A stretch of DNA of 45,476 nucleotides from Escherichia phage vB_VIPECOTPH05A. Made by a program: the position numbers and the translations under genes. Of this stretch, positions 12,772 to 45,476 are shown piece by piece (the stretch's first letter is position 1; each line of letters begins with the position of its first letter). The notes under the pieces are model-generated. The model was not told the DNA's origin and searched no databases. It saw only the letters and a program-made list of their open reading frames with translations. The DNA is taken from the sequence record PQ429079.1, one strand, 5' to 3'.

Positions 12772-13115
12772 CGGATAAATGGTGGCTTAATTTGCGCAGC
12801 GGTGACAAGGTTTACACCGTCGGTGACCGCAGAAAGAACAGCGGCGTAGCTACTGTGTTACAAAACGGCAAAAAGTACATCCACATTGCGCATGAAGCCC
12901 GGGCGCTCCGCGTGAATAAATCTTCTGGTAGGCTTGAGGATTACCTGAAAACATTAATATACAAAAGTGAAAAGCATCACATGGCCGCTGTTGACGCAAG
13001 ACGTCAGTTCGCAGGAATGTTGCAACAGTTAAGCGACTTACATCGCGATGATTCTTTCACCCCCTCAGAAGAACAGCTACAGGCATTAAACTTGTATTTG
13101 GAGAGTTTACGATGA
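12768..13115 (+). CDS. hypothetical protein
   Basis: ORF 12753..13115; likely ATG at 12768 overlapping previous stop. Confidence 0.45.
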   Translation: MTDKWWLNLRSGDKVYTVGDRRKNSGVATVLQNGKKYIHIAHEARALRVNKSSGRLEDYLKTLIYKSEKHHMAAVDARRQFAGMLQQLSDLHRDDSFTPSEEQLQALNLYLESLR

Positions 13116-14353
13116 TTCTAAAAGAACGCGGCGGCAATAACGATGTTCACGCCTTACTTTCGCCGTCAGGTGCTAAAAAATGGCTGTCATGCGCTGCATC
13201 ACTGGCCTGTGAAAAAGATATTCCTAACACGTCGGGTAAATCCGCCGTTACGGGGACAGCGTGCCACACCATAGCTGAAGTCCATCTCAACGCCTATATC
13301 CGCGGCACTGCGTTGCCGTTAGAGCGTGAAGTTGGCGCTTACGTGCCGGATGAGGGTAAAGGCCAGATTAAGGCGCTAATCAGCCCGATGAAAGGCGCGG
13401 TACTGATTACGGCGGACATGATTGAGCAGGTGCGCAAGTACACCGACTACTGCAAAGCGATTATAGACGTAGCGACTTATGCCAAGCTCGAGATGCGGGT
13501 AAATCTTACTGAGGTGTTGCATCCTGGTTACGAAGGCGTTGAGACGTTCGGAACCGCTGACCTTGTTGCCGTTCAGGAACTGGCAAACACTGGCGAGCAT
13601 ATGCTCCTTATCGGCGACCTTAAAACAGGACGGCATCGTGTTGAAGCGAAAGAAAACAAGCAGCTTATGCTCTACGCTCTCGGTGTTTATCGCCGACTCA
13701 AGAGACGTTATAACATCACCGCGGTTCGTCTGGCCATCTTTCAGCCATACGCTGGCGGCGCGTCGGAGTGGGACATCTCGGTTGAAGGTCTGGAACTGTT
13801 CGCTAAGTTTGCGCAGAAACGGGCGCTGTTAGCTCTTGATGCGTATTTCCGTGGTAAAAAGAACCTGAAAGCGTCGGACTTCAGGCCGTCTGTCGACGGT
13901 TGCCAATGGTGCCGTTTCTCAGAGCAGTGCGCCGCGCGTACAAAAACCGTCAACGCGGTGCTGGCGGAAGAACTGGAGGACGACTTTGCGCTGGAACTGA
14001 CGCCGGAGCAACTCGTCGCTGAGTATGAGAAGCTGCCGCTGTTGCGCCAGCACATCGATAAGGTTGAGAAAGCTATGGCTGCTGCGTTGCATTCCGGTAA
14101 GAAAGTTCCTGGGTACAAGCTGGTTGAAGGTAAGATGGGCAATCGTGCGTGGAAAGACGCGGAGAAAGTAACAGAACTCTACGGCGACAAGCTGACTAAA
14201 GAAGTGCTCATGACGCCAACCGAAGCTGTTAAAGTGATACCGGAAGAAGAACTGAAAGACTTCATCACACGTAAGCCAGGTGCCCCATGCATCACAACGG
14301 CAGACGACAAACGGCCTGAGTGGAATCAGGTTAGTGAAGAAGATTTGGAATAA
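13112..14353 (+). CDS. PD-(D/E)XK exonuclease, Cas4/RecB-like (DUF2800-type)
   Basis: N-terminal HALLSPSGAKKWLSCAASL, GDLKTG, C-terminal cysteine cluster CQWCRFSEQC; ends EEDLE. Confidence 0.6.
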   Translation: MILKERGGNNDVHALLSPSGAKKWLSCAASLACEKDIPNTSGKSAVTGTACHTIAEVHLNAYIRGTALPLEREVGAYVPDEGKGQIKALISPMKGAVLITADMIEQVRKYTDYCKAIIDVATYAKLEMRVNLTEVLHPGYEGVETFGTADLVAVQELANTGEHMLLIGDLKTGRHRVEAKENKQLMLYALGVYRRLKRRYNITAVRLAIFQPYAGGASEWDISVEGLELFAKFAQKRALLALDAYFRGKKNLKASDFRPSVDGCQWCRFSEQCAARTKTVNAVLAEELEDDFALELTPEQLVAEYEKLPLLRQHIDKVEKAMAAALHSGKKVPGYKLVEGKMGNRAWKDAEKVTELYGDKLTKEVLMTPTEAVKVIPEEELKDFITRKPGAPCITTADDKRPEWNQVSEEDLE

Positions 14354-14386: not shown

Positions 14387-14441
14387 TCTAATCACTGGCC
14401 GGGCAGCTCCCGGAGTAAACTGAAAACTGAGGAATCGAGAA

Positions 14442-15068
14442 ATGGGGCTGAAATTAAATCTGCGTAAAGTAAACACTGCCTGGGTTAACGTATTCGAACG
14501 CGAAAAAGACCGTGAAAATGATGATGGTTCAATCACTAAAGGTCAGTACAGTGCGACTATTATCCTGCCGTCCGACCACGCGCAAATCGACGCGCTCTAC
14601 GACACCGTTTACGCTGTAGTTGAAGAAGCGTTAGGTGCAGCCGCCGCTGAGAAGTGGATGAAGTCTAACTACGGCGAAGGTAAGCACATGGATAAATGTG
14701 CGATTAAAGACATTGCTGAGCGTGACAATCCGTTTGAAGACTTCCCGGAAGGCTTCTACTTCAAAGCGAAGGCACAGAAACAGCCGCTGATTGTTACCTC
14801 TAAAAAAGGTGAGACTCAGGTAGAGCAGGACTTCAATGTAGACGGCGAACAGATTGAAGGTGAACAAGTTTACAGCGGCTGCGTCGCTAACGTAAGCGTC
14901 GAAATCTGGTTCAGCCAGAAATACAAAGTCCTCGGCGTTAACCTGCTGGCTATTAAATACGTAGGCGAAGGTAAAGCGTTCGGCGGTTCTAAAGTCGCCG
15001 CAAGCGTCAATGACCTGGAAGATGACGAAGAAGATGAAGCACCGCGCCGCGAACGTCGCCGCCGCTAA
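14442..15068 (+). CDS. ssDNA-binding protein (DUF2815/T7 gp2.5-like, acidic C-terminus)
   Basis: 208 aa; C-terminal NDLEDDEEDE tail; sits between exonuclease and polymerase. Confidence 0.55.
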   Translation: MGLKLNLRKVNTAWVNVFEREKDRENDDGSITKGQYSATIILPSDHAQIDALYDTVYAVVEEALGAAAAEKWMKSNYGEGKHMDKCAIKDIAERDNPFEDFPEGFYFKAKAQKQPLIVTSKKGETQVEQDFNVDGEQIEGEQVYSGCVANVSVEIWFSQKYKVLGVNLLAIKYVGEGKAFGGSKVAASVNDLEDDEEDEAPRRERRRR

Positions 15069-15087
15069 TATCTGAATGAATTTAACT

Positions 15088-15110
15088 AAGGCCCTTCATT
15101 GGGCCTTTTT
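15088..15110 (+). terminator. rho-independent terminator
   Basis: stem AAGGCCC/GGGCCTT followed by TTTTT. Confidence 0.6.
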
Positions 15111-15122
15111 ACCGGAGTCAGA

Positions 15123-15596
15123 ATGGAACATATAAAAGATTTTCTTAGCTATAACCGAGAAACCGGAATATTCACATGGATACAACCTACATACAGACGA
15201 GGGAAACCTGGAGACATCGCAGGATGCATCAATAGTAGTGGATACTGGCGAATACCTTATATGGGTAGATATTACATGGCCCACAGGCTCGCTTGGTTTT
15301 TCGAGTACGGTGAATGGCCCGAGGGTCCTCTTGACCACATAAACCGTGACAGGTTAGACAATAGGATTTCTAACCTAAGGAAAGCAACCACCGCAGATAA
15401 TGTGCGAAACGCTAAAAATAAGGGGGCTAGAACGGGAGTTAAGGGAGTAGTTAAAACCGGCAACCGATTTTATGGGCGGGTACATTTTAACTACAAAAGT
15501 TATAATGCGGGTAGCTACGGAACTCTTGAAGAAGCAGAAAGCGCTGTAAAGAAATTAAGAGAAAAATTGCATAAGGAATTTTATTGCCATGGCTAG
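15123..15596 (+). CDS. HNH homing endonuclease with AP2 domain
   Basis: ORF 15099..15596; likely ATG at 15123; HNH motif LDHINRDRLDNRISNLR, AP2-like C-terminus; stop overlaps polymerase start. Confidence 0.75.
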   Translation: MEHIKDFLSYNRETGIFTWIQPTYRRGKPGDIAGCINSSGYWRIPYMGRYYMAHRLAWFFEYGEWPEGPLDHINRDRLDNRISNLRKATTADNVRNAKNKGARTGVKGVVKTGNRFYGRVHFNYKSYNAGSYGTLEEAESAVKKLREKLHKEFYCHG

Positions 15597-17787
15597 TTTA
15601 TTATACCTGGATACCGAGACATTCTCCGAAGCGGACTTAAAGAAAGTCGGGTCGTATGCGTATGCGGAGCACCCAACGACAGAGGTTATAATTTGTACAT
15701 ATGCCGTTGATGATGGCCCTGTAGAAATATGGGATTGCACTTCCGAACCTGTAATGCCGATAAGCCTCTGTGTGGCTCTCCGTAATGTTATGCGTGGGCG
15801 TATGAAAATCGTGGGCCATAACTTTTTAATGTTCGACAGGCTCGTCATGAAACACTGCTGGGGCTTTGATATTCCGGTAAGCAACACCATTGATACGATG
15901 ATTTGGGCGTTTCGTCACGCGCTGCCGGGTTCACTTGATGCCTTGTGCGAAGTGTTGGGCGTATCAGCAGACAATGCGAAAGATAAACGCGGCAAGGCGC
16001 TGATTCAGCGTTTCTCTAAACCGACGCCGAAGAACTACAAAATCCGCCGTTACACTGCCGAAACGCACCCGGACGAGTGGGCGCTGTTTATCAAATACGC
16101 CGTGAGCGACATCACTGCGATGCGTGAGGTCTTCCATAAGCTGCCGCGTTGGGGTAACTCAGAGTTCGAAGACCGTGTACTGGAACTGGACCAGTTAATC
16201 AACGACCGCGGGTTTAAGGTCGACGTTGCGCTGGCAGAAGCCGCGATTGAAGCCGTGGAGAAACACAAAGCGCAGTTACAAGAAGAAACCCAACGTAAAT
16301 ACGGTGGCTCTCTTACCGGTAAAGACTTTCTGCCGATTCTGCGTGAACTGGCGCCTGCGCATCGCATCCACAACGCGCAGAAGTCTACGCTTAACGACCT
16401 GCTGGCGGACGATGATTTACCGGACGACGCCCGCGCGATTATCGAAATGCGCCTTGGAGCCGCGTCGACAGCGTCTACGAAATATAACCCGCTGCTGCTG
16501 GGACGCTCGTCGGACGACCGCCGTCGTGGTTGCTTGCAGTACGGCGGGGCGAAACGCACTCTGCGATGGGCGGGTAAAGGCTTCCAGCCGCAGAACCTGG
16601 CACGCGGGTATTATCACGATGATGAGCTGGATAAAGGCATTTCTGCGTTACTTAAGGGTCGCGCTCATCGCCGTTTTGACGTAGCCAAACTAACGGCATC
16701 GACGGTTCGTAGCTGCATCATACCGGAAGCTGGGCACAAGTTTGTCGTCGCCGATTACTCTAACGTTGAAGGCCGTGGGCTTGCGTGGCTGGCGGGAGAA
16801 GAAACTGCGCTGGATACGTTCCGTGCAGGGCTGGATATTTACTGCGTAACCGCAGGTAAGATGTTCGGCATGGACCCCGACGATATTAAGAAAAACTTCA
16901 AGGAAATCAGACAGATAGGCAAGGCTTGCGAGCTTGGCCTCGGCTATGAGGGCGGAGTCGGAGCGTTCGTTACGTTCGCCAAAAACTTAGGTCTTGACCT
17001 TATTGAGATGGCAAAAACAATGGATGGTACATTCCCTGACCACATCTGGTCAGCCACCGCGAGAGGATATGAATGGGCGCGCATCCAGGAAGCCAAGCGA
17101 CCCCCGCATCCAGGTGAAAAGGACGACAGACCATCATATATTCTGGACAAGAAAGTGTGGCGCACATGCGACGCAATCAAACGTATGTGGCGTGAGTCAC
17201 ACCCTGAAACAGTAGCGTTCTGGCGTGACCTTAAAGACGGAATTTTAGCCGCTGTTCGTAATCCTGGTCGTGAATTTTGGGCGGGGGCGCACTTGCGCAG
17301 GAATGGGGAAAGGGCCATCCGCGTATGGCGTACGGTAGAATTTGATTCGTCGGGCAGGAAGGTTCCCGGTTGGTGGCTTTGTATGGAGTTGCCGTCAGGC
17401 CGTATCCTCTCGTATCCGGGAATCGGCGTTAGCGTGACAAAGGAAACCGACGAAGACGGACGGGTAAATACGAATGTGCGAATCAAGTATCAGGGCGAAA
17501 ACCAGTTAACCCGTCAGTGGACTACCCTGCACACACACGGCGGCAAAGCCTGTGAAAACCTGGTCCAAGCGCTGTGCCGTGATTTACTTGCGTATGCGAT
17601 GATTAACGTTGAGCGCGGTGGGTACCCTATCGTACTTTCGGTACATGATGAACTGGTATGTGAAACTCCAGATACGCCCGATTACACGGTACCTGATCTG
17701 GAAAAATTAATGTGTGCGTTGCCAGAGTGGGCGGAGGGGTTCCCTCTTGTAGCGGAAGGTAGCGAAATGTACAGATATGCTAAATGA
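15589..17787 (+). CDS. DNA polymerase, family A (T7-like) with 3'-5' exonuclease domain
   Basis: Exo motif YLDTETFS; pol motif A DYSNVEGR, motif B KACELGLGYEGG, motif C VHDELV. Confidence 0.85.
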   Translation: MASLLYLDTETFSEADLKKVGSYAYAEHPTTEVIICTYAVDDGPVEIWDCTSEPVMPISLCVALRNVMRGRMKIVGHNFLMFDRLVMKHCWGFDIPVSNTIDTMIWAFRHALPGSLDALCEVLGVSADNAKDKRGKALIQRFSKPTPKNYKIRRYTAETHPDEWALFIKYAVSDITAMREVFHKLPRWGNSEFEDRVLELDQLINDRGFKVDVALAEAAIEAVEKHKAQLQEETQRKYGGSLTGKDFLPILRELAPAHRIHNAQKSTLNDLLADDDLPDDARAIIEMRLGAASTASTKYNPLLLGRSSDDRRRGCLQYGGAKRTLRWAGKGFQPQNLARGYYHDDELDKGISALLKGRAHRRFDVAKLTASTVRSCIIPEAGHKFVVADYSNVEGRGLAWLAGEETALDTFRAGLDIYCVTAGKMFGMDPDDIKKNFKEIRQIGKACELGLGYEGGVGAFVTFAKNLGLDLIEMAKTMDGTFPDHIWSATARGYEWARIQEAKRPPHPGEKDDRPSYILDKKVWRTCDAIKRMWRESHPETVAFWRDLKDGILAAVRNPGREFWAGAHLRRNGERAIRVWRTVEFDSSGRKVPGWWLCMELPSGRILSYPGIGVSVTKETDEDGRVNTNVRIKYQGENQLTRQWTTLHTHGGKACENLVQALCRDLLAYAMINVERGGYPIVLSVHDELVCETPDTPDYTVPDLEKLMCALPEWAEGFPLVAEGSEMYRYAK

Positions 17788-17802
17788 TGAGGGGTGCGTA
17801 TT

Positions 17803-18301
17803 ATGAGAGACCTAATTAATTGGCACGACCATTTTCTACTACGAACCCGACACGGGGAAGATACGATGGAAGTATTCCCCGAGACACAGTATAAACGCCG
17901 GAGACGAAGCCGGCAGCCCAAGTAAGAGGGGCTACATCTGTATCGTCGTCAGAGGGGTTAGTTACAGGGCTAATCGCATCGCGTGGGAGATGCATAACAA
18001 TGAACGTTTAGGGACTGATGATGAAGTAGACCATATAAATCACATCCGGGATGATAATCGTGCATGCAACCTTCGTAAAGTATCTCGTACTGATAACAAC
18101 CGAAACGCATCTCGGAGAAAAGATAACAAATCAGGTCTCACAGGTGTGCACTGGAACGCACGGGCGGCTAAATGGAAAGCATGTATATTTGTTGGTGGTA
18201 AACTTATATTCCTGGGCCATCATGACAATATATTTGACGCGGCTTGTGCGCGGAAATCTGCGATTATTCGCTACGTCTTTCATGAGAATCACGGAGGTTA
18301 G
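17803..18301 (+). pseudogene. HNH homing endonuclease, apparently frameshift-disrupted
   Basis: ATG at 17803 opens a 39-aa frame; the HNH body (VDHINHIRDDNRACNLR) is in the +1 frame from about 17816 to 18301 with no start codon of its own. Confidence 0.55.
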
Positions 18302-18302
18302 A

Positions 18303-18434
18303 ATGCTAAGTAAACTGATTATCGCGGTACTGGCAGGATTCGCCGCCGGTGTCTACTGCCACGAGGGGCAATACGGCATGATTGTCGCCGTATTAGGTAT
18401 GTTCATCGCAATTTATCTGTGGGTGCTGGAATGA
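18303..18434 (+). CDS. small membrane protein (43 aa)
   Basis: MLSKLIIAVLAGFAAGVYCHEGQYGMIVAVLGMFIAIYLWVLE; ATGA-coupled. Confidence 0.35.
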   Translation: MLSKLIIAVLAGFAAGVYCHEGQYGMIVAVLGMFIAIYLWVLE

Positions 18435-18516
18435 AAATTTACTGGTTCTACGAAGAAGACCGCCGAATCTGTCCGCGCTGTGGGATTGAGCATACGAAAC
18501 GCGAGGGGTGCGTGTT

Positions 18517-18669
18517 ATGACAATGCTTGTATTTTGGACGATAGTAGCCATGCTCGCACTGTTACTCGGTGCAGGAATAGCCGCGATGTTCTGTTACGGC
18601 CTGTTCTTTAAGTTTGCCGGTGTCGCCGTTCTAGGCGGGGCTTTCATTACCTGGATTCTGCGCTCATGA
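18517..18669 (+). CDS. small membrane protein (50 aa)
   Basis: MTMLVFWTIVAMLALLLGAGIAAMFCYGLFFKF...; preceded by a 29-aa CxxC peptide ORF at 18431..18520. Confidence 0.35.
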   Translation: MTMLVFWTIVAMLALLLGAGIAAMFCYGLFFKFAGVAVLGGAFITWILRS

Positions 18670-18950
18670 CTAAAGAGGGGCGCATCCAGAAATACGCAAA
18701 AGAGCGATTCGAGGCTATCGGCGGCCTCGTTCGTAAGCTCTCCTACGAAGGACGTTCCGGCGCTCCTGACCTGCTGGTAATTCTCCCCGGCGGCATAGTC
18801 TGGTTCGTCGAGGTTAAGAAAGACGAAAACACGAAGCCGGACCCGCACCAGTTACGAGAGCACGAGCGTATGCGTAAACGTGGTGCTAATGTTTTTGTCG
18901 TTGGTTCGTTCAAACAGGTTGACGACCTAATAGCGAACTATTATAGTTAG
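18666..18950 (+). CDS. VRR-NUC domain nuclease
   Basis: PD-(D/E)XK core GAPDLLVILPGG...WFVEVKKDE. Confidence 0.65.
   Translation: MTKEGRIQKYAKERFEAIGGLVRKLSYEGRSGAPDLLVILPGGIVWFVEVKKDENTKPDPHQLREHERMRKRGANVFVVGSFKQVDDLIANYYS
18919..18947 (+). promoter_or_regulatory. sigma70 consensus-like promoter (TTGACG-N17-TATAGT)
   Basis: embedded in the 3' end of the VRR-NUC gene; same architecture as promoters at 11336 and 14358. Confidence 0.5.
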
Positions 18951-18980
18951 CCATACACCAACAATATAAGGAATTGAGAA

Positions 18981-19175
18981 ATGAAACACGAATATGACCG
19001 CAAGCCAGCACGTGACATCGTACCTGGCGACATGATTTTCAACGTTAAGACCCGCCAGCCTGTTGCCGTTGATACTGTGTTCGTCGAGTCAAACGGTAAA
19101 CTGGTTATCGAAGATGTAACAGGCAACGTTACTGCGTTCGGGCGTAAAGAGCTGGTACTCTACGTTAAGGATTGA
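18981..19175 (+). CDS. hypothetical protein
   Basis: 64-aa ORF with RBS AAGGAATTGAG. Confidence 0.45.
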   Translation: MKHEYDRKPARDIVPGDMIFNVKTRQPVAVDTVFVESNGKLVIEDVTGNVTAFGRKELVLYVKD

Positions 19176-21643
19176 ACATGTCTAAATTTATCCGTCGAGG
19201 GTACCAGAAGCTCATGACTTCGTTCATGCTGCAACACCCGCGCTGTAATATCTGGGCCAGTATGGGTAGCGGCAAGTGCCTGAAACGCGGGACTGAAGTT
19301 ATTATGTTTGACGGTACGACCAAGAAAGTAGAAGACGTCATCGTCGGTGACGTGCTTATGGGGCCGGATTCGACGCCTAGAAATGTACTGTCTCTCGGTA
19401 GAGGCCGGGAGATGATGTACGAGGTTAAACCGCGAAAAGGAGAGTCGTATACGGTCAACGAAAGCCATATATTATCCCTGCGAACTACTACAGGGATCGC
19501 AAAAGGTTCATGGCCAGATAATACCGTTTTCGACATAAGCGTCCGCGACTGGCTTAAGTTGCCGAAATATGTAACCGGACCTAATGGGTATCTTAAGGGT
19601 TGGCGGGTACCTGTCGATTTTACAAGGAAAGAGCAGGACGAGGCTTTATTGCCTCCGTACCTTATGGGGTTATGGCTGGGTGACGGTACTTCGTCGTCGG
19701 GGGCCATAACATCAGGAGAGAACGAAAAGGAAATAAGGGCTTATCTTGAGTCGTACGCAGCACGTAATGGGATGCAAATACGAAAAGAAGGACTTACATG
19801 GAGTATATCTTACGGCAACACAGGTCATAAGAAGCACGGGTTTACGCACGCGCTGAAATCGGCGGGTGTCCTGAACAATAAGCATATACCGCATAGTTAC
19901 AAATGCGGCGACCGGCGACAGCGGTTAGAATTGCTGGCGGGGCTTCTGGATAGTGATGGTTACTGCGATTTGTCTAAAGCGGGTTTTGACTGGATTTCGG
20001 TAAGCGAGCGACTTGCTGATGATTTTTGTTATCTATGCCGTTCTCTTGGTTTTGCTGCTTACAAGAAGAAAACTCGTAAGCGTTGCGCAAACACTGATGT
20101 TTGGGGTGACTACTTCCGTGTGTCGGTATCTGGCGATTTTTCTGAGGTACCTTTCGTGCGAGGACGCCACCAGAATTTACCGAAGCGTAATATTAATAAG
20201 AACGTGCTTAACGTTGGGATAGAATCCATAACCCCGGTCGGCGTAGATGATTATTTTGGCTTCACTATCGACGGTGACAGTAGGTTTTTATTGGGGGACT
20301 TCACTGTCACGCACAATACAAGCTCAACGTTGTGGGTTCTCAACCGCCTGTTCCGTAATGGGCAACTTAATGACGACGACCGCGTGTTAATCCTCGCCCC
20401 GTTGCGTGTTGCGTCTGGCACGTGGCCTGCGGAACAGGCACGTTGGGGTTTCCCGTGCCTGCGTGTCGTAGATGCAACTGGTTCAGAGAAGCGCCGCATC
20501 GCGGCGCTGGAGTCGGACGCTAACGTGGTGTGCACTAACTACGAAGTTATCGAATGGCTTATTGACTACTACGGCAAAGACGACTGGCCTTTTACAGTTA
20601 TTGTCGCCGATGAAAGCACGAAGCTGAAATCGTTTCGCAGCCGTTCAGGTGGTAGCAAGCGTGCAAAGGCGCTCAGCAAAGTGGCGTTTGGTAAGGTTAA
20701 GCGTTTTATCAACCTGACCGGTACGCCGTCACCAAACGGCCTCAAAGACTTGTGGGGGCAGAACTGGTTTATAGACGCAGGCGAGCGACTTGGTTCTTCG
20801 TACACGGCATTCACTGACCGCTGGTTTAACTCGGTGCAGAAAGGGAAGTCCGCGATGGCGCGCGAGTATCACGCACGACCGGGTGCAGATAATGAAATTC
20901 ATCAGAAGATGAAGGATATCAGTCTCACTATCGATGCCGCAGAGTGGTTCGGTTGCGAAGCGCCGATTATCGTTCCTGTTGAAATAGACCTGCCGAAGAA
21001 AGCGCGTCAGGCGTACATCGATATGGAGGAGAAGTTATTTGCGGAACTCGAGAGCGGAGAAGTCGAAGCGGCTAATGCCGCGGCGAAGACGTCGAAGTGT
21101 TTGCAGATTGCATCCGGTGCCGTATATGTGTCAGGGCCAGATGGCGAAGCAACAAAAGACTGGGAGAAAGTGCACGACACGAAACTGGATGCGCTCGAGT
21201 CGATTGTTGAGGAGTTACAGGGTGCGCCGTTACTGGTAGCCTATCAGTTTAAGCACGAACTGGAGCGTATCCTTAAGCGATTCCCGCAAGCGCAGGCGTT
21301 TGCCAAAGGCGCTAAGGGTAATAAGCAGATGGAAGCGTGGAACCGTGGGGGAATCGAAATCTTATGCGTTCACCCCGCGTCAGCGGGCCATGGTTTGAAT
21401 TTACAGGACGGTGGACATCATCTGGTATTCATATCGCAAGGCTGGAACCTTGAGCACTATTTGCAGGTTGTCGAGCGCATAGGCCCCGTACGCCAGAAAC
21501 AGGCGGGGCATGAGCGCCCGGTGTTCCTTTATCACATCGTTGCTAAAGACACGCTGGATGAGGTTGTTGCCGCGCGTACAGACGAGAAGAAATCGGTCCA
21601 GGAAGAGTTGCTTAATTACATGAAGAGACGAGGTAAGAAATGA
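19172..21643 (+). CDS. SNF2-family helicase, intein-containing
   Basis: extein has Walker A GSGK|T (split by intein), DEST box VADESTKL, LTGTPSPNGLKDLW, HPASAGHGLNLQ, Q..G...R. Confidence 0.75.
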   Translation: MNMSKFIRRGYQKLMTSFMLQHPRCNIWASMGSGKCLKRGTEVIMFDGTTKKVEDVIVGDVLMGPDSTPRNVLSLGRGREMMYEVKPRKGESYTVNESHILSLRTTTGIAKGSWPDNTVFDISVRDWLKLPKYVTGPNGYLKGWRVPVDFTRKEQDEALLPPYLMGLWLGDGTSSSGAITSGENEKEIRAYLESYAARNGMQIRKEGLTWSISYGNTGHKKHGFTHALKSAGVLNNKHIPHSYKCGDRRQRLELLAGLLDSDGYCDLSKAGFDWISVSERLADDFCYLCRSLGFAAYKKKTRKRCANTDVWGDYFRVSVSGDFSEVPFVRGRHQNLPKRNINKNVLNVGIESITPVGVDDYFGFTIDGDSRFLLGDFTVTHNTSSTLWVLNRLFRNGQLNDDDRVLILAPLRVASGTWPAEQARWGFPCLRVVDATGSEKRRIAALESDANVVCTNYEVIEWLIDYYGKDDWPFTVIVADESTKLKSFRSRSGGSKRAKALSKVAFGKVKRFINLTGTPSPNGLKDLWGQNWFIDAGERLGSSYTAFTDRWFNSVQKGKSAMAREYHARPGADNEIHQKMKDISLTIDAAEWFGCEAPIIVPVEIDLPKKARQAYIDMEEKLFAELESGEVEAANAAAKTSKCLQIASGAVYVSGPDGEATKDWEKVHDTKLDALESIVEELQGAPLLVAYQFKHELERILKRFPQAQAFAKGAKGNKQMEAWNRGGIEILCVHPASAGHGLNLQDGGHHLVFISQGWNLEHYLQVVERIGPVRQKQAGHERPVFLYHIVAKDTLDEVVAARTDEKKSVQEELLNYMKRRGKK
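19277..20317 (+). mobile_element. intein with LAGLIDADG homing endonuclease domain (347 aa)
   Basis: begins Cys (CLKRGTEVIMFDG) right after GSGK, ends ...THN followed by Thr; two LAGLIDADG-like blocks LMGLWLGDGT and LLAGLLDSDGY. Confidence 0.75.
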
Positions 21644-28068: not shown

Positions 28069-30395
28069 TATTTAAACCCCGGCGCATTTCTTGTGGCCTT
28101 GCGGGCCTTGCTAATCTTACTGTTGCTGTTCTGCAAAGAGGCAGCCACCTGCTCTTCTATGATGATGCGCAAACGGCCTTCGTCATCCTGCTCGGTAGAT
28201 ACGTTGCCAATCTGACTCGATGTGTTATTTACAATGGTAACATTAGATGGGCCAGAAGAAGACCCATTTTGCCCCATAATTTCTTTCATCTGCTGCGCAG
28301 TTCGTACGCGCGATGCACCAGCAGGCATGATAACTTCTGGTTTACCGCGTTCGGCGATGGTGGAAGCCTGCCCCGCAGATAACTGACCGCCCTGTTCACG
28401 TGCGGACCTGATAGCGGAAACCTGCGCCATACCTGCCCCAACGGCAGCGGCAGCGGCTACAGGGGCCAGGAACGGGCCAACTACAGGGATAGCCGCCGTG
28501 GACTTGTATGCCTCAATAGCTGCGGTGTACGTGGCTATAGTGGCCTGTACGATAGCGAATGCCTTATACGCGCCAGAAGCCTCACCCAACGCAGACCCGA
28601 TGTTTGAGGCCATGTTGCCAAAGGCCGTTGCCGTTGCGTCGGCGCGCTTCGTAGCATACTGCTCATTGATAGCGTTAAGCGCCGCCTGATACTGTTCCTC
28701 GTTAATAAGCCCCTGTTCACGGTATTTATCTGCGACCGCCAGTTTCTGCTGTTCCTGGATGTCGAGAAGCTCAAGCTCAGCGGCGTTCTGGCCCATAATC
28801 TGAGCCATGAAGTCGTCGCCTTTCTGCTGCTTTTCCTGCTGCTCTTTTCTTTTCTTATCCAGTTCTTCCTGTCTGGCCTGCTCGGCTGTGAGCATAATTT
28901 GAGTTTTGGCGTTTTCATACTGCTGCTGGCTTATCGTTCCGGCGCGGTTGAACTCCTCCAGTTTCGCCAGTTTCTGTTCTTCTGCCGCCGTGATACGAGA
29001 AATTTCGTCTCCAGTAGTGCGGTCGACAGTAGCCAGGAAATCTTCGGCGGCTTTCTTCTGACGTTGCGCCGCCGTTTCTTCACGTTTGGCCTGCGCCGCC
29101 AGACGTTTCTCGTTCGATTTAGCCTCGCGGTCTGCCTTCGCTTTTTCGGTAGCGTCGATGCGGGCGATGTCTTGCTGCGCTTCCGCGTCACGGGCAGCGT
29201 TATACGCGGCTATCTGTTCTTTGGTGACAGCTTCACGTTTAGCGAACGCCTGCTTATCCAGTTCAGCTTGTGCCCGGATGCGCTCACGGTCGCTTAAGAT
29301 GGCAATTTGCTGATTCTTGACGATAGCTTCGTTCTGCTCCTGGAACCTCTGTGTGGTTGAGTTAACGTTACGTCCAAGATTCTTTTGGGCCTCTGCCGCC
29401 GCGTTTGCTGACTTCTCTGCGTTCTCCAGTGCCGTGGCGTTCTTATTGGCATTGTCAGTCAGGCGGATAAGTTCCGGGTTCAACTGTTTTGTGTTACCGA
29501 GCCAGTCGGTAAACACATCGGCGATACGACGGGCATTCTCGGCGGTTGGTTCTTTGTTAAACGCACTCTGCGCCGCTATCATCTCCAGCGCCTGGTCACG
29601 GTTAACTCCGAACTTACTGCTAAGCTCCGCGATATTCTGCGCCAGCATGTTGACGCCCACGATGTTACCTTCGTAAGTGCCGCCGAGTTTTTCTAACGTG
29701 TCGCCTACATCCGCACCCTTAGATACCAGTGCATCGTACTGACTAATAGCCGATGTCGTGGAGGCTTTCCACGTTTCCCACGATTCGGCATCTTCACGAA
29801 CAGCTTTAGCGGTTTGCTGTGCGATAAGGTCCGCGTTAGCCTTAGCCAGAGCAAGCTGAGTCTCCGCCGCCTCCCTACTGATTTGGGTAAGCTGGATAAG
29901 GCCGTCTGTCAGTTCGAGGGAGCCAGATGCCGTTTGCTGGAAAGTATCTTTTAACTGTTTCTGTGCGGCTTCGAGGTCTTTTGAACTGCCTTCTGCTTCG
30001 GTTAGCGATTTGTACAGTACCCCGCCAACAGCCGACGCTAGCGCGATTACCGCTCCAAGTACAGCACCCCCCGGTCCGAAGGCACCTGCAAGCTGGGAGC
30101 CTTGTTGCCCTATCGCTACGAATGCGGACGTGCCGGACTGCAACTGGACGACCATGTCCTGTACCTGGAAGCCCACCTGCCCGGCGGCGTTACGGAACTT
30201 GGCAAAACCGTCGGACGCGGCTTTAGAGGTAGCGGTGTTAACTTTATTAACATCCGGAGTTAGTTTGTTTACAGATGCGTCCGCCCGGTCTGCGGATGCC
30301 GCCATAGCGTCAAGCTGTTTGGCGGCGACGTCAGCCCCTTCAGTTTTTACTCTGGCGATTAGGGAAGCCGTATCAGCCATCTTCTCTGCCCTCAA
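28068..30395 (-). CDS. tail tape measure protein
   Basis: 775 aa, Ala/Gln/Glu-rich coiled-coil; C-terminal hydrophobic/Gly-rich region; downstream of G/GT chaperones. Confidence 0.8.
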   Translation of the reverse strand: MRAEKMADTASLIARVKTEGADVAAKQLDAMAASADRADASVNKLTPDVNKVNTATSKAASDGFAKFRNAAGQVGFQVQDMVVQLQSGTSAFVAIGQQGSQLAGAFGPGGAVLGAVIALASAVGGVLYKSLTEAEGSSKDLEAAQKQLKDTFQQTASGSLELTDGLIQLTQISREAAETQLALAKANADLIAQQTAKAVREDAESWETWKASTTSAISQYDALVSKGADVGDTLEKLGGTYEGNIVGVNMLAQNIAELSSKFGVNRDQALEMIAAQSAFNKEPTAENARRIADVFTDWLGNTKQLNPELIRLTDNANKNATALENAEKSANAAAEAQKNLGRNVNSTTQRFQEQNEAIVKNQQIAILSDRERIRAQAELDKQAFAKREAVTKEQIAAYNAARDAEAQQDIARIDATEKAKADREAKSNEKRLAAQAKREETAAQRQKKAAEDFLATVDRTTGDEISRITAAEEQKLAKLEEFNRAGTISQQQYENAKTQIMLTAEQARQEELDKKRKEQQEKQQKGDDFMAQIMGQNAAELELLDIQEQQKLAVADKYREQGLINEEQYQAALNAINEQYATKRADATATAFGNMASNIGSALGEASGAYKAFAIVQATIATYTAAIEAYKSTAAIPVVGPFLAPVAAAAAVGAGMAQVSAIRSAREQGGQLSAGQASTIAERGKPEVIMPAGASRVRTAQQMKEIMGQNGSSSGPSNVTIVNNTSSQIGNVSTEQDDEGRLRIIIEEQVAASLQNSNSKISKARKATRNAPGFK

Positions 30396-31151
30396 ATATT
30401 CCGTCTAAGCCCATGATAACCTCGGCTTCGAACAAACTTATGCCGTAACCGGCGACATCGCGAAACGCAGCCAAATCTTGCCATTTGAGCGCATCGCGCG
30501 GGATTATAACGATAGTATCATCTGTTTCGCGCTGTAGGAATTTAATGGCCCGGTATTTCTCGAACACGTCGATAAGAGAAACGGGGCATTCCGGCCCCGT
30601 CGCTTCTTTCATCTGCGGTTCTTTAATCACGCCCATTGCAATCAAAGCCGCCTGGTGTCCCGCCGCGATGTCGTCGAATTGCTTACGTTTGTGGCGGTCG
30701 ACAAAGCACCATTGCGCAAATTCATACAGCGCTTTTACTTTTCCGAGAGTTTCTCGCGGCTATCGGTGTGGTGCTTAACTACAGCCTCCGCCAACCCACT
30801 GTACTGGTCGAACAGGTTAGCCAGCGCCTCTTTACTGAACGGCTCATCGAAGGACCAACCGGTGACGATTTCCACGGCGAGCTGCTTGTTCAGGTCCATA
30901 ACCCGCCAGCCCTTCTCATCGTTATAGCGCGCCCAGTTATTCAATGCCTCACACTCTTTATCTAACGGCGCAAGTTCTTCCGTAAGGCGTCGAATTGCCG
31001 TTGTGTAGGCGCGGCCTGCTCGAACGCCCGCATCGCAATCGGGGCCAATGACCTGCAGCCATTCGCCAGAGTCTTTTCCGCTAGGCAGAAGGATTGGCAT
31101 TTTAGTACCGGCGGCGTGACGGTCGGCAAAATAGAAATCAGAAAGTTTCAT
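30373..31151 (-). CDS. tail assembly chaperone frameshift product (GT-like, via -1 frameshift near 30738)
   Basis: -1 frame is open from the G stop region through 30373; ORF-track 30373..30645 is its 3' part. Confidence 0.5.
30735..31151 (-). CDS. tail assembly chaperone (G-like)
   Basis: 138-aa ORF upstream of tape measure, ends ...SEK at slippery GAA-AAG-TAA. Confidence 0.6.
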   Translation of the reverse strand: MKLSDFYFADRHAAGTKMPILLPSGKDSGEWLQVIGPDCDAGVRAGRAYTTAIRRLTEELAPLDKECEALNNWARYNDEKGWRVMDLNKQLAVEIVTGWSFDEPFSKEALANLFDQYSGLAEAVVKHHTDSREKLSEK

Positions 31152-31258
31152 TCTTTAGTCCTTTGGTTAAGAGGTTACTGGTTATGGTTAATGCGCCAGG
31201 CGGGAACCACCCGCTTTTCGTGTGCGACACTAGGCGCAAACTTATTCTAACACACTAC

Positions 31259-31287
31259 TTGCACACCCCAATATAATAGGGTACTAT
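31259..31287 (+). promoter_or_regulatory. sigma70-like promoter (TTGCAC-N17-TACTAT) for opposite-strand island
   Basis: drives plus-strand genes from 31316 inside the minus-strand tail operon. Confidence 0.5.
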
Positions 31288-31315
31288 TCACCCGTAACTT
31301 ACTGAGGAAACAATT

Positions 31316-31642
31316 ATGCGTAAATTAGTATTAGCTCTGGGGTTTATGTCTTTTGCTACTTTTGGGACTCCGTGTGAACAGGTATTTAGCGAATCTGTTC
31401 TTATGACTTCTGGTGTGCTTGAGAAAGCCGACCCTACTATTGTAAAGGCATTTAAGGACTCTACCGTTCGCGAGTGTGAAGCCGCCGTAGAGGTTGGTAA
31501 ATCTGGTCTACCTCCGCAAGCAGTAACATACACGGTGATACGTTCGGTAGAGAAAAACGGAGACGCGTTTTACAGCCTGCTGACAGCCACCCGCCTGCAA
31601 ATGGTAATGGCTGGATGGGCGATAGGCGCGGAAAGTAAATAG
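31316..31642 (+). CDS. secreted/periplasmic small protein (signal peptide)
   Basis: N-terminus MRKLVLALGFMSFATFG is signal-peptide-like; RBS GAGGAAA. Confidence 0.55.
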   Translation: MRKLVLALGFMSFATFGTPCEQVFSESVLMTSGVLEKADPTIVKAFKDSTVRECEAAVEVGKSGLPPQAVTYTVIRSVEKNGDAFYSLLTATRLQMVMAGWAIGAESK

Positions 31643-31708
31643 TCGCCTTTATTTAAAGGAACGCACTGTGGTTAAATAGGACAAATCCTAAACGCGAGGA
31701 AGTAAAGC

Positions 31709-37905: not shown

Positions 37906-38955
37906 TTAAGCACCGACACCAGTTACCAGGAAGGCAATCGGTACATGCTTACGCTCAACAACGCGGTTCCAGTTGGAGGCGTTCGCCAGGTCCTGCCATG
38001 AAGCAGAACGTGCGACGGTCTCGGTGCCGTTACCGGTGATTACTGCGCTGGTAAAGCTGTAGCCCAGTGGGTGCAGCAACCAGGTCTTACGGGTCCACAG
38101 GGTTTCTACCCCACCGCCGTTGCCGCGAGACGCTTCGCGCTCGTATTCCAACGGGTTGGACGGAGAACCTTCACCGTAACCGATAGCGCCGTTACCGAAG
38201 ATAATGGAGATGAACTTACGGCTAGAGTCGGTGCTGACTACGGTCATGCTGTCGTCAACAATCACGCGGTAACCCTGGTAGGTGGCGAACAGTGTGTCGT
38301 TGTCGGCGTCTTTGATGAAGTCAATAAGCTGCTGCTTACGGGCCTGCGCATAAACGAAGCTGTGCATCGCGATAGCACCCAGCACTTCTCCGCCGTTGCC
38401 CATCAGCGCATCACCCATAGTCTGGGTGGCGTCGATGAACGCACCTGCGTCGAAGCCCAGAGTAGCAGACACGTCTACAACCATGTCATTCTGCTCGTGG
38501 TATGCGTCGGTAGCGGCTACGTTGTCATTGTACAGACCGAGCGCGGTAGCGATCAGACGGCGTTGCGCCTGGCGCTGCCAGAAGTTATCCAGACGGGACG
38601 CTACGGATTGCAGCGGGTTCTGGCTGGTCAGTTCGACAGTCAGGTCCGCCTGGCCAAAACCTTCGTTCAGGTATGCAACGCGCGCCATCATCTCGCCGGT
38701 TTGCACGTTACGCGGGGTAGCGATGTCCTGGTATACGTCGTTCGAGTAGTTAGGCTCGATAGAAGTATCAATCGCTTTCCAGAAAGGAATGTTAGCGACG
38801 TTGGACGGGCCGCGGGCAATCTCGGCGGCGTACGGAGTAGGGGTAAGAATACCGGACTGGAAGAACGCGGTTTTTTCTACCGGGTCCTCGGTCATATAAG
38901 ACGCCAGGACCGGGATGTTGCCAGTTACGATATCGCCGATAGTGGTAATTGCCAT
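37906..38955 (-). CDS. major capsid protein
   Basis: 349-aa protein immediately after the scaffold gene and followed by a strong terminator. Confidence 0.7.
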   Translation of the reverse strand: MAITTIGDIVTGNIPVLASYMTEDPVEKTAFFQSGILTPTPYAAEIARGPSNVANIPFWKAIDTSIEPNYSNDVYQDIATPRNVQTGEMMARVAYLNEGFGQADLTVELTSQNPLQSVASRLDNFWQRQAQRRLIATALGLYNDNVAATDAYHEQNDMVVDVSATLGFDAGAFIDATQTMGDALMGNGGEVLGAIAMHSFVYAQARKQQLIDFIKDADNDTLFATYQGYRVIVDDSMTVVSTDSSRKFISIIFGNGAIGYGEGSPSNPLEYEREASRGNGGGVETLWTRKTWLLHPLGYSFTSAVITGNGTETVARSASWQDLANASNWNRVVERKHVPIAFLVTGVGA

Positions 38956-42735: not shown

Positions 42736-44217
42736 TTACTGCTGAGTGACATCTTGTTGCTGCGCCGACTGCGGAATCTCTCCTGCCACCTGAGTAACCG
42801 CACCTAACGGCAGAGGTGCGCCCTCAATAGCGTTCTGAATATCCTCGTCGGTCCAGTCAGTCACCCCTGCTTTACGCAACGCGGAGTAGTATGCGGTCGC
42901 TGGCAGCAGACCGGCATTAATGTCCGCCATCCACTGAGCGCGGTCCTGAGCGGTCATCGGTTGCAGGAAGAACTCCATGTTAAGTTTGAACTCAATCTCT
43001 GTGCCTTCACGCAACCCTAGCATCGCAGCCACCCAGCGCAACGCATCGGTATACGCCATGCTTACGTTACGTGCGATTGTCGCCATAACGGACGTGTCAG
43101 CACCACGTTGCAGGCGGGCCGATTCAGCGGTGATTTGCTGCGTCGGGGTGATAAGCTGCGCACCAATCTGGATGGCCTGATTCTCTTTATCCAGCATGTT
43201 CTGCTTGGCCAGGTTATTCTCTCCGGCCTGGACCAGAAACGCATTGCCGCCGTAGCCGATGTTATGACCTGAACGCGACCCCATGCGCACACCGTGTGGG
43301 TTAGCCTCTTTCCACTGTTCCATGCTCATGTTCTCACCCGGGGCGATGAACAGAGTTGGCTGACCTACAACGAAGCTGGATTCCTCATTGTCTGCGCTGT
43401 TGCGGAAATGCCCGATATTAAGCTCGGCCAACGGCAGCAAAGGCGCATCGTCAATGGTCGCGTCGTTATTGCTTGCGCCGATAAACGTGAACGGGATTTT
43501 GCCGCGCAACTGTTCGCCAAGTTCCGGGAATATTTCGATTACTTCATCCTGGGCACCACCTTCGGCATCGAAGCGGTAAATGCGCTGGCGGTAGCGCCCA
43601 TCAATCAGGTCAAGGACGCGGTATTGCTCGCCGAACTTTGTTTCGAACTCTGCACCAGGTTCTGAGTATTCCCATATCTCACGTAATACAACCATCGTCA
43701 CGCGGTTCACTGAACCGACGCGAGCCAGTCGCCAGTTGATGATGTTCTCCGCGGTATAGAATGCGATGACCGGGTTTAATAGCCCTGCGTTCTGCTCGGC
43801 TGCCGTTGCTGCAGCTGTCTCAGGGGCATCCACCAGCAACCCGCCGCGGCCCACCGAATCAATCTCCATCAGCGTATCCTGCGCGTGCTGCCACAGCCCG
43901 ACACCGGAACCGTCGGCATTACGTAACAGGTACTCAAGTTCAGGCGGGATAATCTGCTCTGGGTCTTTGCACATCACTGACCCAACCATCCCCGCCAGGG
44001 TACGTTTGGTGAAGTTGTAGCAGATAGCGCCGTTCTCGTATTCTTCCTGGCGCTGGTCTGCGTATTTCTGGTCTGGCTCATTCTTCCCGACATTTCGAAG
44101 ATAGCGAATAAGGTCGCCTTCCAGCGCGTGGCGCACCTTCTGCCATTTATTGAAGTGATGCAGCCATTCCCGGTGTTTTGTCTTAACACCCTGATTCTGA
44201 CCGTTCATAGTTAACAT
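42736..44217 (-). CDS. portal protein
   Basis: 493-aa protein between large terminase and head morphogenesis genes. Confidence 0.7.
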   Translation of the reverse strand: MLTMNGQNQGVKTKHREWLHHFNKWQKVRHALEGDLIRYLRNVGKNEPDQKYADQRQEEYENGAICYNFTKRTLAGMVGSVMCKDPEQIIPPELEYLLRNADGSGVGLWQHAQDTLMEIDSVGRGGLLVDAPETAAATAAEQNAGLLNPVIAFYTAENIINWRLARVGSVNRVTMVVLREIWEYSEPGAEFETKFGEQYRVLDLIDGRYRQRIYRFDAEGGAQDEVIEIFPELGEQLRGKIPFTFIGASNNDATIDDAPLLPLAELNIGHFRNSADNEESSFVVGQPTLFIAPGENMSMEQWKEANPHGVRMGSRSGHNIGYGGNAFLVQAGENNLAKQNMLDKENQAIQIGAQLITPTQQITAESARLQRGADTSVMATIARNVSMAYTDALRWVAAMLGLREGTEIEFKLNMEFFLQPMTAQDRAQWMADINAGLLPATAYYSALRKAGVTDWTDEDIQNAIEGAPLPLGAVTQVAGEIPQSAQQQDVTQQ

Positions 44218-44229
44218 TGAATAATCCTC

Positions 44230-45476
44230 TTAAAGTGCGAAAGTTACCGGGATGTTGATTACTGGTTTAACCACCGGCATCTCATAAACTACAGGATAGC
44301 CGAGAGCATCCGCCATATGGTCAATGACGCCGTCTTTAGCAGGCTCTCCGTTATCATCATATGCCTGCTGCTCCAGCGTCTTCGCTATCTCAGGGCATAA
44401 GTGGTCGTTAACCCACAGCTTACCTTTTTCCAGCGCGGTATTCACGGCTAAAACACGGTCTTTAACCGGTGGGTTGGCGGATTTAGCGCGAACATCAAAA
44501 CCAGCCTGCTGTAGTAAGGCGATATCGGAGATTGATGCTGAGTTGGTTTTGCGGTTCTTGCCGCTGGCGTCCGGGTAAACGACGATGCGGTGGCCTTGCG
44601 ACTTCCACTTCTCGGTAATCACACGCACGGTATCTGGCGTATCGAACAGGCCCTTCAGTTCTGCTACCGCGTGCCAGCCGTCTTTACGTTGCACATACAC
44701 GGCGCTGGCGTTCTTCGTAACGTTGAAGTCCTGCCCGATGTACAGCGTGTCGCCCGGTTGGATTGTCTCTTTGCTGCGATGCTTACGTCGGTCGTAGGCG
44801 TAGTATACGCTGCCGGATGTCAGGTTAACGAACTCCCCATTCAGGTACGCGTTAATCAGTTGCGCTGGGTAAGTCTCGGTCAGCGAGCTAATGTAGTCAG
44901 GCGGCAGGAATCGCGCGTTCTCGTGGGTGGAAGCCTGCACCATTGAGTAACTCGGTGTCGGGTTCTCTTTGAACTTGGCGTAGACGAACTTGAACCCTTC
45001 CGGCGTCGTGGTGACGGAGATGTGGTTGGTTACACCAGGGATAACCAGACGCATACGGGCGACGATTTTGTTCCATGCCAGTTCAGCTTTTTCTCGGCTC
45101 AGTACGTCCAGTTCATCCACGACCGCGGCGGCGATTTTGAAACCCACAATCGAACCGGGGTTATCCATAGAACGACAGATAACCGTTCCGAGCACCGTCT
45201 TACCGCGAGTAACCACGACCTCTTTGTCTCCGGATTTAACCAGCACATCAAGGCCGAGCAGGTTAGCCGCTTCCTCGAATGTCGGGTAGAAGATGTCACG
45301 GATGGCGGGATAGGTGGGGCCGAAGTAGCCCAGGCGCGTACCGGGATGCTTGAGCATAAACGTAAGCAGGTCAAGGCAGCCGACAAACGTCTTGCCACTA
45401 CCGAAGCCGCCTACGTAGGCCTTGTATTTGTTGTCACAATTCAGGAACAGTGCCTGCGGCGCGGATAGCTGAATAC
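44230..45476 (-). CDS. terL: terminase large subunit (5' end at/through window edge)
   Basis: Walker A YVGGFGSGKTF near the window end; frame stays open to the edge and, if circular, joins an ATG at positions 4..2. Confidence 0.8.
   Translation of the reverse strand, partial: IQLSAPQALFLNCDNKYKAYVGGFGSGKTFVGCLDLLTFMLKHPGTRLGYFGPTYPAIRDIFYPTFEEAANLLGLDVLVKSGDKEVVVTRGKTVLGTVICRSMDNPGSIVGFKIAAAVVDELDVLSREKAELAWNKIVARMRLVIPGVTNHISVTTTPEGFKFVYAKFKENPTPSYSMVQASTHENARFLPPDYISSLTETYPAQLINAYLNGEFVNLTSGSVYYAYDRRKHRSKETIQPGDTLYIGQDFNVTKNASAVYVQRKDGWHAVAELKGLFDTPDTVRVITEKWKSQGHRIVVYPDASGKNRKTNSASISDIALLQQAGFDVRAKSANPPVKDRVLAVNTALEKGKLWVNDHLCPEIAKTLEQQAYDDNGEPAKDGVIDHMADALGYPVVYEMPVVKPVINIPVTFAL

Follow-up and report, generated by a model that had tools for sequence, protein, structure and literature searches.

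Probable HNH-AP2 homing endonuclease genes at both ends of a Kagunavirus DNA polymerase gene, the downstream copy frameshifted

What are the two HNH endonuclease genes that bracket the DNA polymerase gene of Escherichia phage vB_VIPECOTPH05A, and how might they have come to lie there? The window analysed here is the whole sequence record PQ429079.1 (45,476 nucleotides (nt)), an assembled contig from a public sequencing run and a Kagunavirus-type genome (Guernseyvirinae). In it, one such gene, HNH-1, overlaps the start of the family A polymerase gene and a second, HNH-2, follows its stop codon (Table 1). Both are very probably free-standing homing endonuclease genes of the phage HNH-AP2 family, each situated at its own end of the polymerase gene. 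Altogether 461 phage records match positions 14400-19200, of which more than 100 are Escherichia/Kagunavirus; in the best match, Escherichia phage vB_VIPECOMC04 (Guernseyvirinae, Kagunavirus; 93% identity at 99% coverage), the annotation places an 'HNH endonuclease' on either side of the DNA polymerase gene.

Profile searches assign HNH-1 to the HNH endonucleases. It matches Pfam HNH_3 over residues 51-95 (nt 15273-15407; E=2.3e-15 and 56.4 bits, with a cut-off of 24.8 bits) and PHROG 99, 'HNH endonuclease', with E=8e-59. Within this core, the residues D71, H72, N84 and N93 are invariant across a family of 45 sequences and align with the VDH..NLR..N motif of I-HmuI. The AlphaFold model of HNH-1, with a predicted local distance difference test (pLDDT) score of 91.8, places strands at residues 70-72 and 85-87 and a helix at residues 90-95. 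The predicted core is that of a beta-beta-alpha His-Me nuclease, including the putative catalytic Asp-His pair and two Asn residues.

The C-terminal domain of HNH-1 (residues ~107-153, nt 15441-15581) needed a family profile and a structure model to be settled, because single-sequence searches are too weak. In particular, Pfam AP2 does not match the single HNH-1 sequence, and single-sequence PDB searches return weak matches to I-HmuI (E=0.4) and ApiAP2 (E=0.9). The profile of the 45-member family matches the AP2 domains of WRI1 (E=8e-9), TEM1 (E=1e-5) and ERF096 (E=0.006), as well as I-HmuI (1u3e, E=1e-6), and many homologues at 40-48% identity bear precomputed matches to both AP2 (PF00847) and HNH_3. 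In the structure model, residues 109-153 form a three-stranded sheet and a helix that superpose on the AP2 domains of TEM1 and AtERF1 with a root-mean-square deviation of 0.9 A (Foldseek probability 1.00), and AP2 domains are the top PDB fold matches. The AP2 domain of HNH-1 is confirmed in this sense, through family-level evidence and the predicted fold only.

HNH-2 has to be read across a frameshift. The gene starts at an ATG at 17803, 16 nt past the polymerase stop and with a good Shine-Dalgarno (SD) sequence, and its product opens MRDLINWHDHF; as it stands, this first open reading frame (ORF) ends at a TAA at 17923-17925. Aligned with the orthologues in vB_VIPECOMC04 and vB_EcoS_XY2, both intact, the window has one extra T, reading CCATTTTCTAC where they read CCATTTCTAC. 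Further downstream lies an ORF of 103 codons, whose frame is open upstream to 17816, without a start codon, and encodes the N-terminal half (FYYEPDTGKIRWK...) that the ORF does not include. The 103-codon fragment retains the DH..N..N motif and the AP2 part and lacks the N-terminal beta-sheet domain. Once corrected for the frameshift, HNH-2 is a 165-amino-acid (aa) protein with the motif EVDH..CNL..DNN, which matches HNH_3 (E=1e-7, 31.8 bits) and PHROG 99 (E=2e-59), scores below threshold against Pfam AP2 (E=0.002; 18.9 vs 33.3 bits) and aligns over its full length, 149 columns, to the HNH-1 family profile (hhalign 99.9%). HNH-1 and HNH-2 share 37% aa identity over 107 residues and are therefore old paralogues, not the product of a recent duplication; a third HNH copy was not found in the window. 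The gene caller of the source assembly called nothing at HNH-2, and an exact look-up of its two fragments in a protein collection found neither.

These results bear on a first-pass annotation of the window, which was made from the letters alone. It had placed an HNH-AP2 gene directly upstream of the family A polymerase and overlapping its start, and HNH-1 is such a gene, its TAG stop (15594-15596) lying in an 8-nt overlap with the polymerase ORF. It had also placed a paralogous HNH gene directly downstream; a paralogue of HNH-1 does adjoin the polymerase there, but it is not the intact 103-aa gene then described, whose coordinates cover the 3' part of a frameshifted 165-codon gene. Finally, it had staked its reading on the HNH motifs being found by profile search, which holds for HNH-1 and for the corrected HNH-2; the 103-aa fragment by itself, at 23.9 bits, falls just under the HNH_3 cut-off.

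Both genes are distributed sporadically. HNH-1 DNA is found in five phage records (vB_VIPECOMC04, EM1, KMB36, fBC-Eco01 and P AB-2017) and HNH-2 DNA in two (XY2 and vB_VIPECOMC04), and the two occur together in one record only; nucleotide identity between the window and these GenBank orthologues is 91-99.6% for HNH-1 and 93-94% for HNH-2. Comparison with HNH-less relatives, the check that the first-pass annotation had proposed, defined an exact junction for each gene. At the empty HNH-1 site (K1G and XY2), ssb is followed by a hairpin and T-run (marked as a terminator in the fBC-Eco01 record); next comes an SD sequence, and then the polymerase ATG. In HNH-1 carriers, the sequence departs from the empty allele right after the hairpin, at 15113; the start of HNH-1 takes the position of the polymerase start in empty genomes, the polymerase ATG lies inside the last codons of HNH-1, and the SD-like AAGGA of the polymerase gene sits within the 3' end of HNH-1. 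On the left flank, ssb is 86-100% identical among relatives, with HNH-1 present or absent. At the same ssb-polymerase site, fFiEco02 (L008, 1226-1381) and HSE2 (L009, 1227-1505) have small Cys-rich ORFs of 51 and 92 aa together with the HNH-less polymerase 5' haplotype; these ORFs are unrelated to HNH and were ruled out as decayed HNH copies.

At the other end, the polymerase stop and the orf43 start overlap in a single ATGCTAAGTAA in HNH-2-less phages. HNH-2 carriers have ATGCTAA twice, the second copy standing at the orf43 start (18303-18309), with HNH-2 between the copies, and both neighbouring genes are therefore intact. The polymerase C-terminus reads GSEMYRYAK with HNH-2 and GAEMKRYAK without it, and the linked differences lie within the last ~25 nt of the gene. 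The GSEMYRYAK end also occurs in Bas73 and Ro145c2YLVW, and Bas72, Bas74 and KMB35 have the same polymerase-end allele by DNA match alone. In Bas73 (GertrudWoker_Bas73; L017, 1638-2333), the polymerase-orf43 site holds an unrelated 231-aa Cys-rich 'endonuclease VII' gene; in Ro145c2YLVW (L018, 1560-1573), the junction is empty but de-overlapped, with a 12-nt spacer.

The same sites are occupied in distant relatives. Orthologues of HNH-1 (64-73% aa identity) lie between ssb and polymerase in the metagenomic phage contigs L012, L014 and L015, overlapping the polymerase start by 8-11 nt, and the polymerases of these contigs are 67-71% identical to that of the window beyond the first 80 residues. 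Contig L014 also has an HNH-2 orthologue (59% aa identity), which starts in the last polymerase codons. With orthologues at the same ends in such distant contigs, each lineage has therefore long been associated with its own polymerase end. In the replication module of relatives, members of the HNH-AP2 family occur in at least four further intergenic positions, ahead of exonuclease, ssb, VRR-NUC, helicase or methylase genes. Sporadic presence, exact junctions and same-site orthologues are together what would be expected of free-standing homing genes. Two further nuclease genes are present in vB_VIPECOMC04 (L016) and absent from the window: a PHROG 99 HNH gene between the spanin genes (38038-38544) and a 459-aa gene between portal and terminase (43020-44399) with weak DUF4379, CapR and REase-like matches.

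Moreover, HNH-1 travels with a distinct polymerase 5' end. Between 6 HNH-1-plus and 5 HNH-1-less phages, there are 70 fixed differences in polymerase nt 1-240, where the block also includes a 2-codon indel, and none in nt 241-570; HNH-1 and this block make up one cassette of ~715 bp (15113-15828). Among 281 matching records, the block exceeds 92% identity only in the five HNH-1-plus records, and the HNH-1-less records among the matches listed show at most ~73% identity in the block and ~90% further into the gene. For example, the P AB-2017 polymerase is 96% identical to that of the window in its first 80 aa and 99% identical to that of HNH-less K1G in the rest, and 1.3 kb upstream is ~99.7% identical to K1G; P AB-2017 looks like a K1G-like genome after acquiring the HNH-1 cassette. 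Between the window and vB_VIPECOMC04, identity is 99-100% from ssb through HNH-1 to polymerase nt ~250 and 86-93% beyond, and HNH-1 carriers have two very different polymerase 3' halves. As possible sources of the block, the distant carriers L012, L014 and L015 were compared: their polymerases are not closer overall to it (51-59% aa identity), and have the DTET motif and the 2-codon deletion in common with it. The sharp block boundary, the complete linkage to HNH-1, the P AB-2017 chimera and the HNH-2-linked polymerase end are consistent with a footprint of co-conversion. A 16-nt similarity (13 of 16 bases) relates 15276-15291 in HNH-1 (MAHRLA) to 15829-15844 in polymerase ExoII (MFDRLV); its second copy begins exactly at the end of the HNH-1-linked block, which is probably a coincidence.

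The selfish homing endonuclease reading, which the first-pass annotation had adopted, is upheld by the sporadic distribution, the exact recurrent sites and the linked flanking haplotype, with endonuclease activity, gene conversion and carrier immunity predicted from these footprints and from known systems. As with I-HmuI and T4 mobE (PMC2790892), mixed infection with a related phage that has no copy would expose the empty allele of that phage to a nick or break close to the site of insertion, the AP2 domain recognizing the sequence. The carrier genome would then serve as template for recombinational repair, through which the empty allele would gain the endonuclease gene and a neighbouring tract. 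For HNH-1, the co-inherited tract would be the first ~240 nt of the polymerase gene, whose differences would protect carriers from self-cleavage; HNH-1 takes over the ribosome-binding region that serves the polymerase in empty genomes and supplies a new SD sequence and an overlapping polymerase start. HNH-2 was inserted exactly at the overlap of the polymerase stop and the orf43 start, duplicating ATGCTAA, and its 1-nt insertion would be an inactivation, the usual fate of a homing gene once fixed.

This picture matches published patterns. I-HmuI, I-HmuII and I-BasI from the polymerase introns of Bacillus phages of the SPO1 group (PDB 1U3E) have the same HNH_3 His-Me core, with DH..N..N aligned, are likewise small monomer-sized proteins, and target the same class of gene, the phage DNA polymerase. 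However, they are encoded inside group I introns, whereas HNH-1 and HNH-2 are free-standing and intergenic, and their C-terminal DNA-binding module is helical and NUMOD-type instead of having an AP2 fold; I-HmuI is known to nick DNA, and HNH-1 and HNH-2 may do so. Closer are the HNH-AP2 homing genes of phages, described in 2004 by Magnani et al., as cited in PMC2248197. In the Xanthomonas phages Xp10, OP1 and Xop411, 'HNN-AP2' genes occur in multiple copies and decay (PMC2248197); in ICP1-like phages, HNH-AP2 homing genes are enriched beside polymerase genes (29% of neighbourhoods) and homing genes bracket essential genes, with one HNH/AP2 gene split by a frameshift (PMC10448857). The likeness to HNH-1 and HNH-2 extends to the N-terminal HNH and C-terminal AP2 domains, the multiple free-standing copies, the sporadic presence, the frequent decay, including by frameshift, and the place beside a polymerase gene. 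The differences are that the window's genes come from another phage lineage, Guernseyvirinae; that they match the canonical Pfam HNH_3 directly, unlike the 'IPA-HNH' genes of ICP1-like phages (PMC10448857); and that their sites are strictly conserved in distant relatives, whereas insertion was judged to be sequence-independent in the Xanthomonas phages (PMC2248197). Further, T4 mobE and the Seg genes (PMC2790892, PMC2988022) are intergenic homing genes beside essential genes, with a co-inherited flank and with carriers that differ from empty alleles near the site; there, cleavage sites and homing frequencies were measured, whereas for HNH-1 and HNH-2 they are inferred from comparative footprints, and the Seg enzymes are of the GIY-YIG type, not HNH. 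In GenBank, orthologues at the same sites are already annotated as 'HNH endonuclease' (vB_VIPECOMC04 gp35 and gp37, fBC-Eco01 gp45c, P AB-2017 P_57 and vB_EcoS_XY2 GT372_00022), and the HNH-2 of the window differs from its GenBank orthologues by the extra T.

Several observations weigh against the reading of HNH-1 and HNH-2 as mobile homing genes, one of them decayed. A Foldseek search with the whole HNH-1 model retrieves AP2 domains and does not retrieve I-HmuI. Among the 281 matching records, there is no HNH-1-less genome with the HNH-1-linked ('immune') haplotype, and immunity is thus inseparable from linkage. The complete linkage of HNH-1 to the polymerase 5' block could also reflect a single ancestral import followed by ordinary recombination instead of repeated homing. 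Finally, the frameshift of HNH-2 is seen in one assembled contig, and the other contig with the same HNH-1 allele ends before HNH-2.

The last of these points raises the question of whether the extra T is real. HNH-2 in the window is either a pseudogene or an isolated assembly error; barring such an error, it has most likely been inactivated. An assembly or sequencing error, in which case the real phage would have an intact 165-aa HNH-2 and two functional endonucleases, is a serious though clearly less probable account: the two versions differ by one homopolymer base, this site of the assembled sequence is not covered by any independent contig, and the coding sequence is otherwise well kept, with all catalytic residues present and its 93-94% nt identity to intact orthologues. 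The polymerase genes of CR01 (L010) and M01 (L011) are broken into 3 and 6 annotated pieces, respectively, without any added length, most likely through sequencing-error frameshifts; frameshifts in this phage group are thus not always biological. On the other hand, four bases make a short run for an error of this kind, homing genes commonly decay once fixed, as described for the HNH-AP2 family (PMC2248197; PMC10448857), and the assembly looks clean: set against all 76 vB_VIPECOMC04 proteins, HNH-2 alone is divided between reading frames. It is most improbable that the extra T is a programmed +1 frameshift site at UUU-CUA (Phe codon in the P site, rare Leu codon in the A site) that keeps the level of a potentially toxic endonuclease low. 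On CAU UUU CUA, tRNA-Phe could slip to UUC in the +1 frame, the full orthologous protein is restored by a +1 shift at this very point, and CUA is a rare codon in E. coli; nevertheless, the site is not conserved, because both orthologues are single-frame with TTT, and it has neither a stimulatory element nor a precedent in the HNH-AP2 family.

Two other explanations set aside independent homing altogether. The HNH proteins might not be selfish, serving instead as packaging factors of the HK97 gp74 type or as accessory nucleases of replication and recombination, and the genome paper of fBC-Eco01 suggests that its HNH proteins 'may promote the packaging process' (PMC9825357). An accessory role would agree with their place in a replication and recombination module, beside an exonuclease, an ssDNA-binding protein and a VRR-NUC resolvase. 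We consider this very unlikely: each gene is absent from more than 95% of related genomes, all of them viable isolates, and the HNH genes lie ~15 kb or more from the terminase genes, so that a packaging role fits poorly with genes that are dispensable in most relatives and far from terminase. Packaging HNH proteins, reportedly characterized by Kala et al. in 2014, are said to be small, single-domain and terminase-adjacent, without an AP2 domain, which also weighs against that role. In addition, relatives have members of this family at six or more distinct intergenic sites, and an unrelated nuclease can take the place of HNH-2 at the polymerase 3' site. There is similarly little chance that the polymerase and both HNH genes move as one homing endonuclease gene (HEG) island with the polymerase as cargo, even though essential genes bracketed by homing genes are the published definition of such an island (PMC10448857) and contig L014 also has both flanking genes. 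The distributions of the two genes differ (5 vs 2 records, with both in one only), HNH-1 is found with both kinds of polymerase 3' half, and between the two genomes that have both genes the polymerase interior (86-93%) is less similar than the left flank (99-100%). In a HEG island as defined by Barth et al. (2023), the cargo is unusually conserved (above 90%) between otherwise dissimilar phages, which this interior is not. HNH-1 and HNH-2 are instead independent of each other, because their distributions differ and the polymerase interior is not unusually conserved.

Taking HNH-1 and HNH-2 as independent homing genes, a bolder version of the same reading can be formulated. HNH-1 might be an active weapon in phage-phage competition, with the first 80 polymerase codons, from ExoI to the start of ExoII in the proofreading domain, as its obligate cargo; we regard this as rather unlikely. 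If it were true, rival Kagunaviruses would come out of co-infection with a chimeric polymerase, and alleles of this essential replication enzyme would be turned over by HNH-1 acting alongside whichever nuclease occupies the polymerase 3' end, either HNH-2 or the EndoVII-like gene.

A third element lies in the next large gene, a SNF2-type helicase gene, where the first-pass annotation had correctly seen an intein. The insert matches Pfam Hom_end_hint (E=2e-21) and LAGLIDADG_3 (E=7e-7) and sits in the helicase Walker A motif (GSGK|C...THN|T). Its Hint domain, first Cys, terminal His-Asn followed by Thr, host motif and LAGLIDADG domain are those predicted of an intein with a homing endonuclease. 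The intein of SETP3-type helicases (Jerseyvirus), annotated in SETP3, Shashou and Sciku, is at the same Walker A site; the window copy is 99.4% identical in nt to those of the Escherichia phages Shashou and Sciku and 95-96% identical to those of ~177 Salmonella phage records. The intein is rare in Escherichia-infecting relatives: of 186 matching records, 3 are of Escherichia phages. The helicase exteins around it are of the ordinary Kagunavirus kind, a pattern that suggests transfer across genera. The polymerase of the window is intact and intein-less, giving a single-frame full-length match to the vB_VIPECOMC04 polymerase. In vB-Eco-KMB36 (L006, 4467-7562), the polymerase is 1031 aa long, with a 299-aa insertion in motif B that has intein-like ends (IGKA|CLHR...VAHN|CELG) and no match to a Pfam intein domain; a third selfish element can thus insert into the polymerase gene in this genus. 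Overall, the replication module has gathered three selfish elements that are independent of one another: HNH-1, HNH-2 and the helicase intein. The first-pass count of three selfish endonuclease elements within about 5 kb is right in its span (15123-20317, ~5.2 kb), with the reservation that HNH-2 is frameshifted.

Table 1. Features of the window around the polymerase gene (positions in PQ429079.1).
Feature	Position	Strand	Basis or remark
DUF2800/PD-(D/E)XK exonuclease gene	13112-14353	+	
ssDNA-binding protein gene (ssb, Enc34/gp2.5-like)	14442..15068	+	Pfam Enc34_ssDNA-bd E=6.6e-16; left flank of HNH-1 site
GC hairpin and T-run (AAGGCCC TTCATT GGGCCTTTTT)	15088..15112	+	common to HNH-1-plus and HNH-1-less phages
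HNH-1, intact free-standing HNH-AP2 gene, 157 aa	15123..15596	+	Pfam, PHROG, family profile, AlphaFold model
Family A DNA polymerase gene with N-terminal 3'-5' exonuclease, 732 aa	15589..17787	+	Pfam DNA_pol_A and DNA_pol_A_exo1
HNH-1-linked polymerase 5' haplotype, first 80 codons, ExoI to ExoII start	15589..15828	+	fixed differences
First ATGCTAA copy, polymerase 3' end	17777..17783	+	alignment with HNH-2-less phages
HNH-2, HNH-AP2 gene, 165 codons once corrected, +1-nt frameshift	17803..18301	+	orthologue alignments
HNH-2 frameshift site, TTTT	17832..17835	+	TTT in intact orthologues
ORF of the first-pass annotation, C-terminal 103 codons of HNH-2	17990..18301	+	
orf43, 43-aa hydrophobic ORF (PHROG 10404 in relatives)	18303..18434	+	right flank of HNH-2 insertion
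VRR-NUC gene	18666-18950	+	further small ORFs between orf43 and VRR-NUC
SNF2-type helicase gene with intein	19178..21643	+	Pfam SNF2-rel_dom, Helicase_C; intein-less orthologue alignment
Intein, 347 aa, Hint and LAGLIDADG	19277..20317	+	Pfam; boundaries by alignment

Beyond these features, a promoter and terminator scan of 14900-18700 gave counts no higher than in shuffled sequence, this simple scan having also missed the hairpin after ssb, and a repeat search returned short two-copy repeats only. One of these, an 18-nt direct repeat GAGGGGTGCGT(A/G)TTATGA at 17789-17806 and 18503-18520, spans the SD sequence and start codon in both places, at HNH-2 and at a small membrane ORF lying 700 nt further on; it may be a chance match or a shared translation-initiation module, and is treated here as probably chance. 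In K1G, vB_VIPECOMC04 and XY2, a DNA methyltransferase gene separates a 64-aa ORF from the helicase gene; it is missing from the window (18981-19178) and from fBC-Eco01. In the tail module, positions 28931-31676 of the window, which hold most of the tape-measure gene and two ORFs upstream, have no nucleotide similarity to vB_VIPECOMC04, and the tape-measure proteins of the two phages have no significant similarity, with flanking tail genes that are 97-100% identical; the pattern points to a mosaic replacement.

The bracketing of the polymerase gene by HNH-AP2 genes is real, and it is ordinary and already known, matching both published patterns and existing annotation; it has little importance beyond correct annotation. 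What the analysis adds is a corrected gene model for HNH-2, a frameshifted gene of 165 codons in place of a 103-aa ORF, and an account of the insertion sites and linkage, in which both ends of the Kagunavirus polymerase gene emerge as places where homing genes settle repeatedly. K1G and P AB-2017 are an example of the natural near-isogenic pairs that are suited to mapping the target of HNH-1 and to measuring its homing, in a genus that is under development for E. coli therapy.

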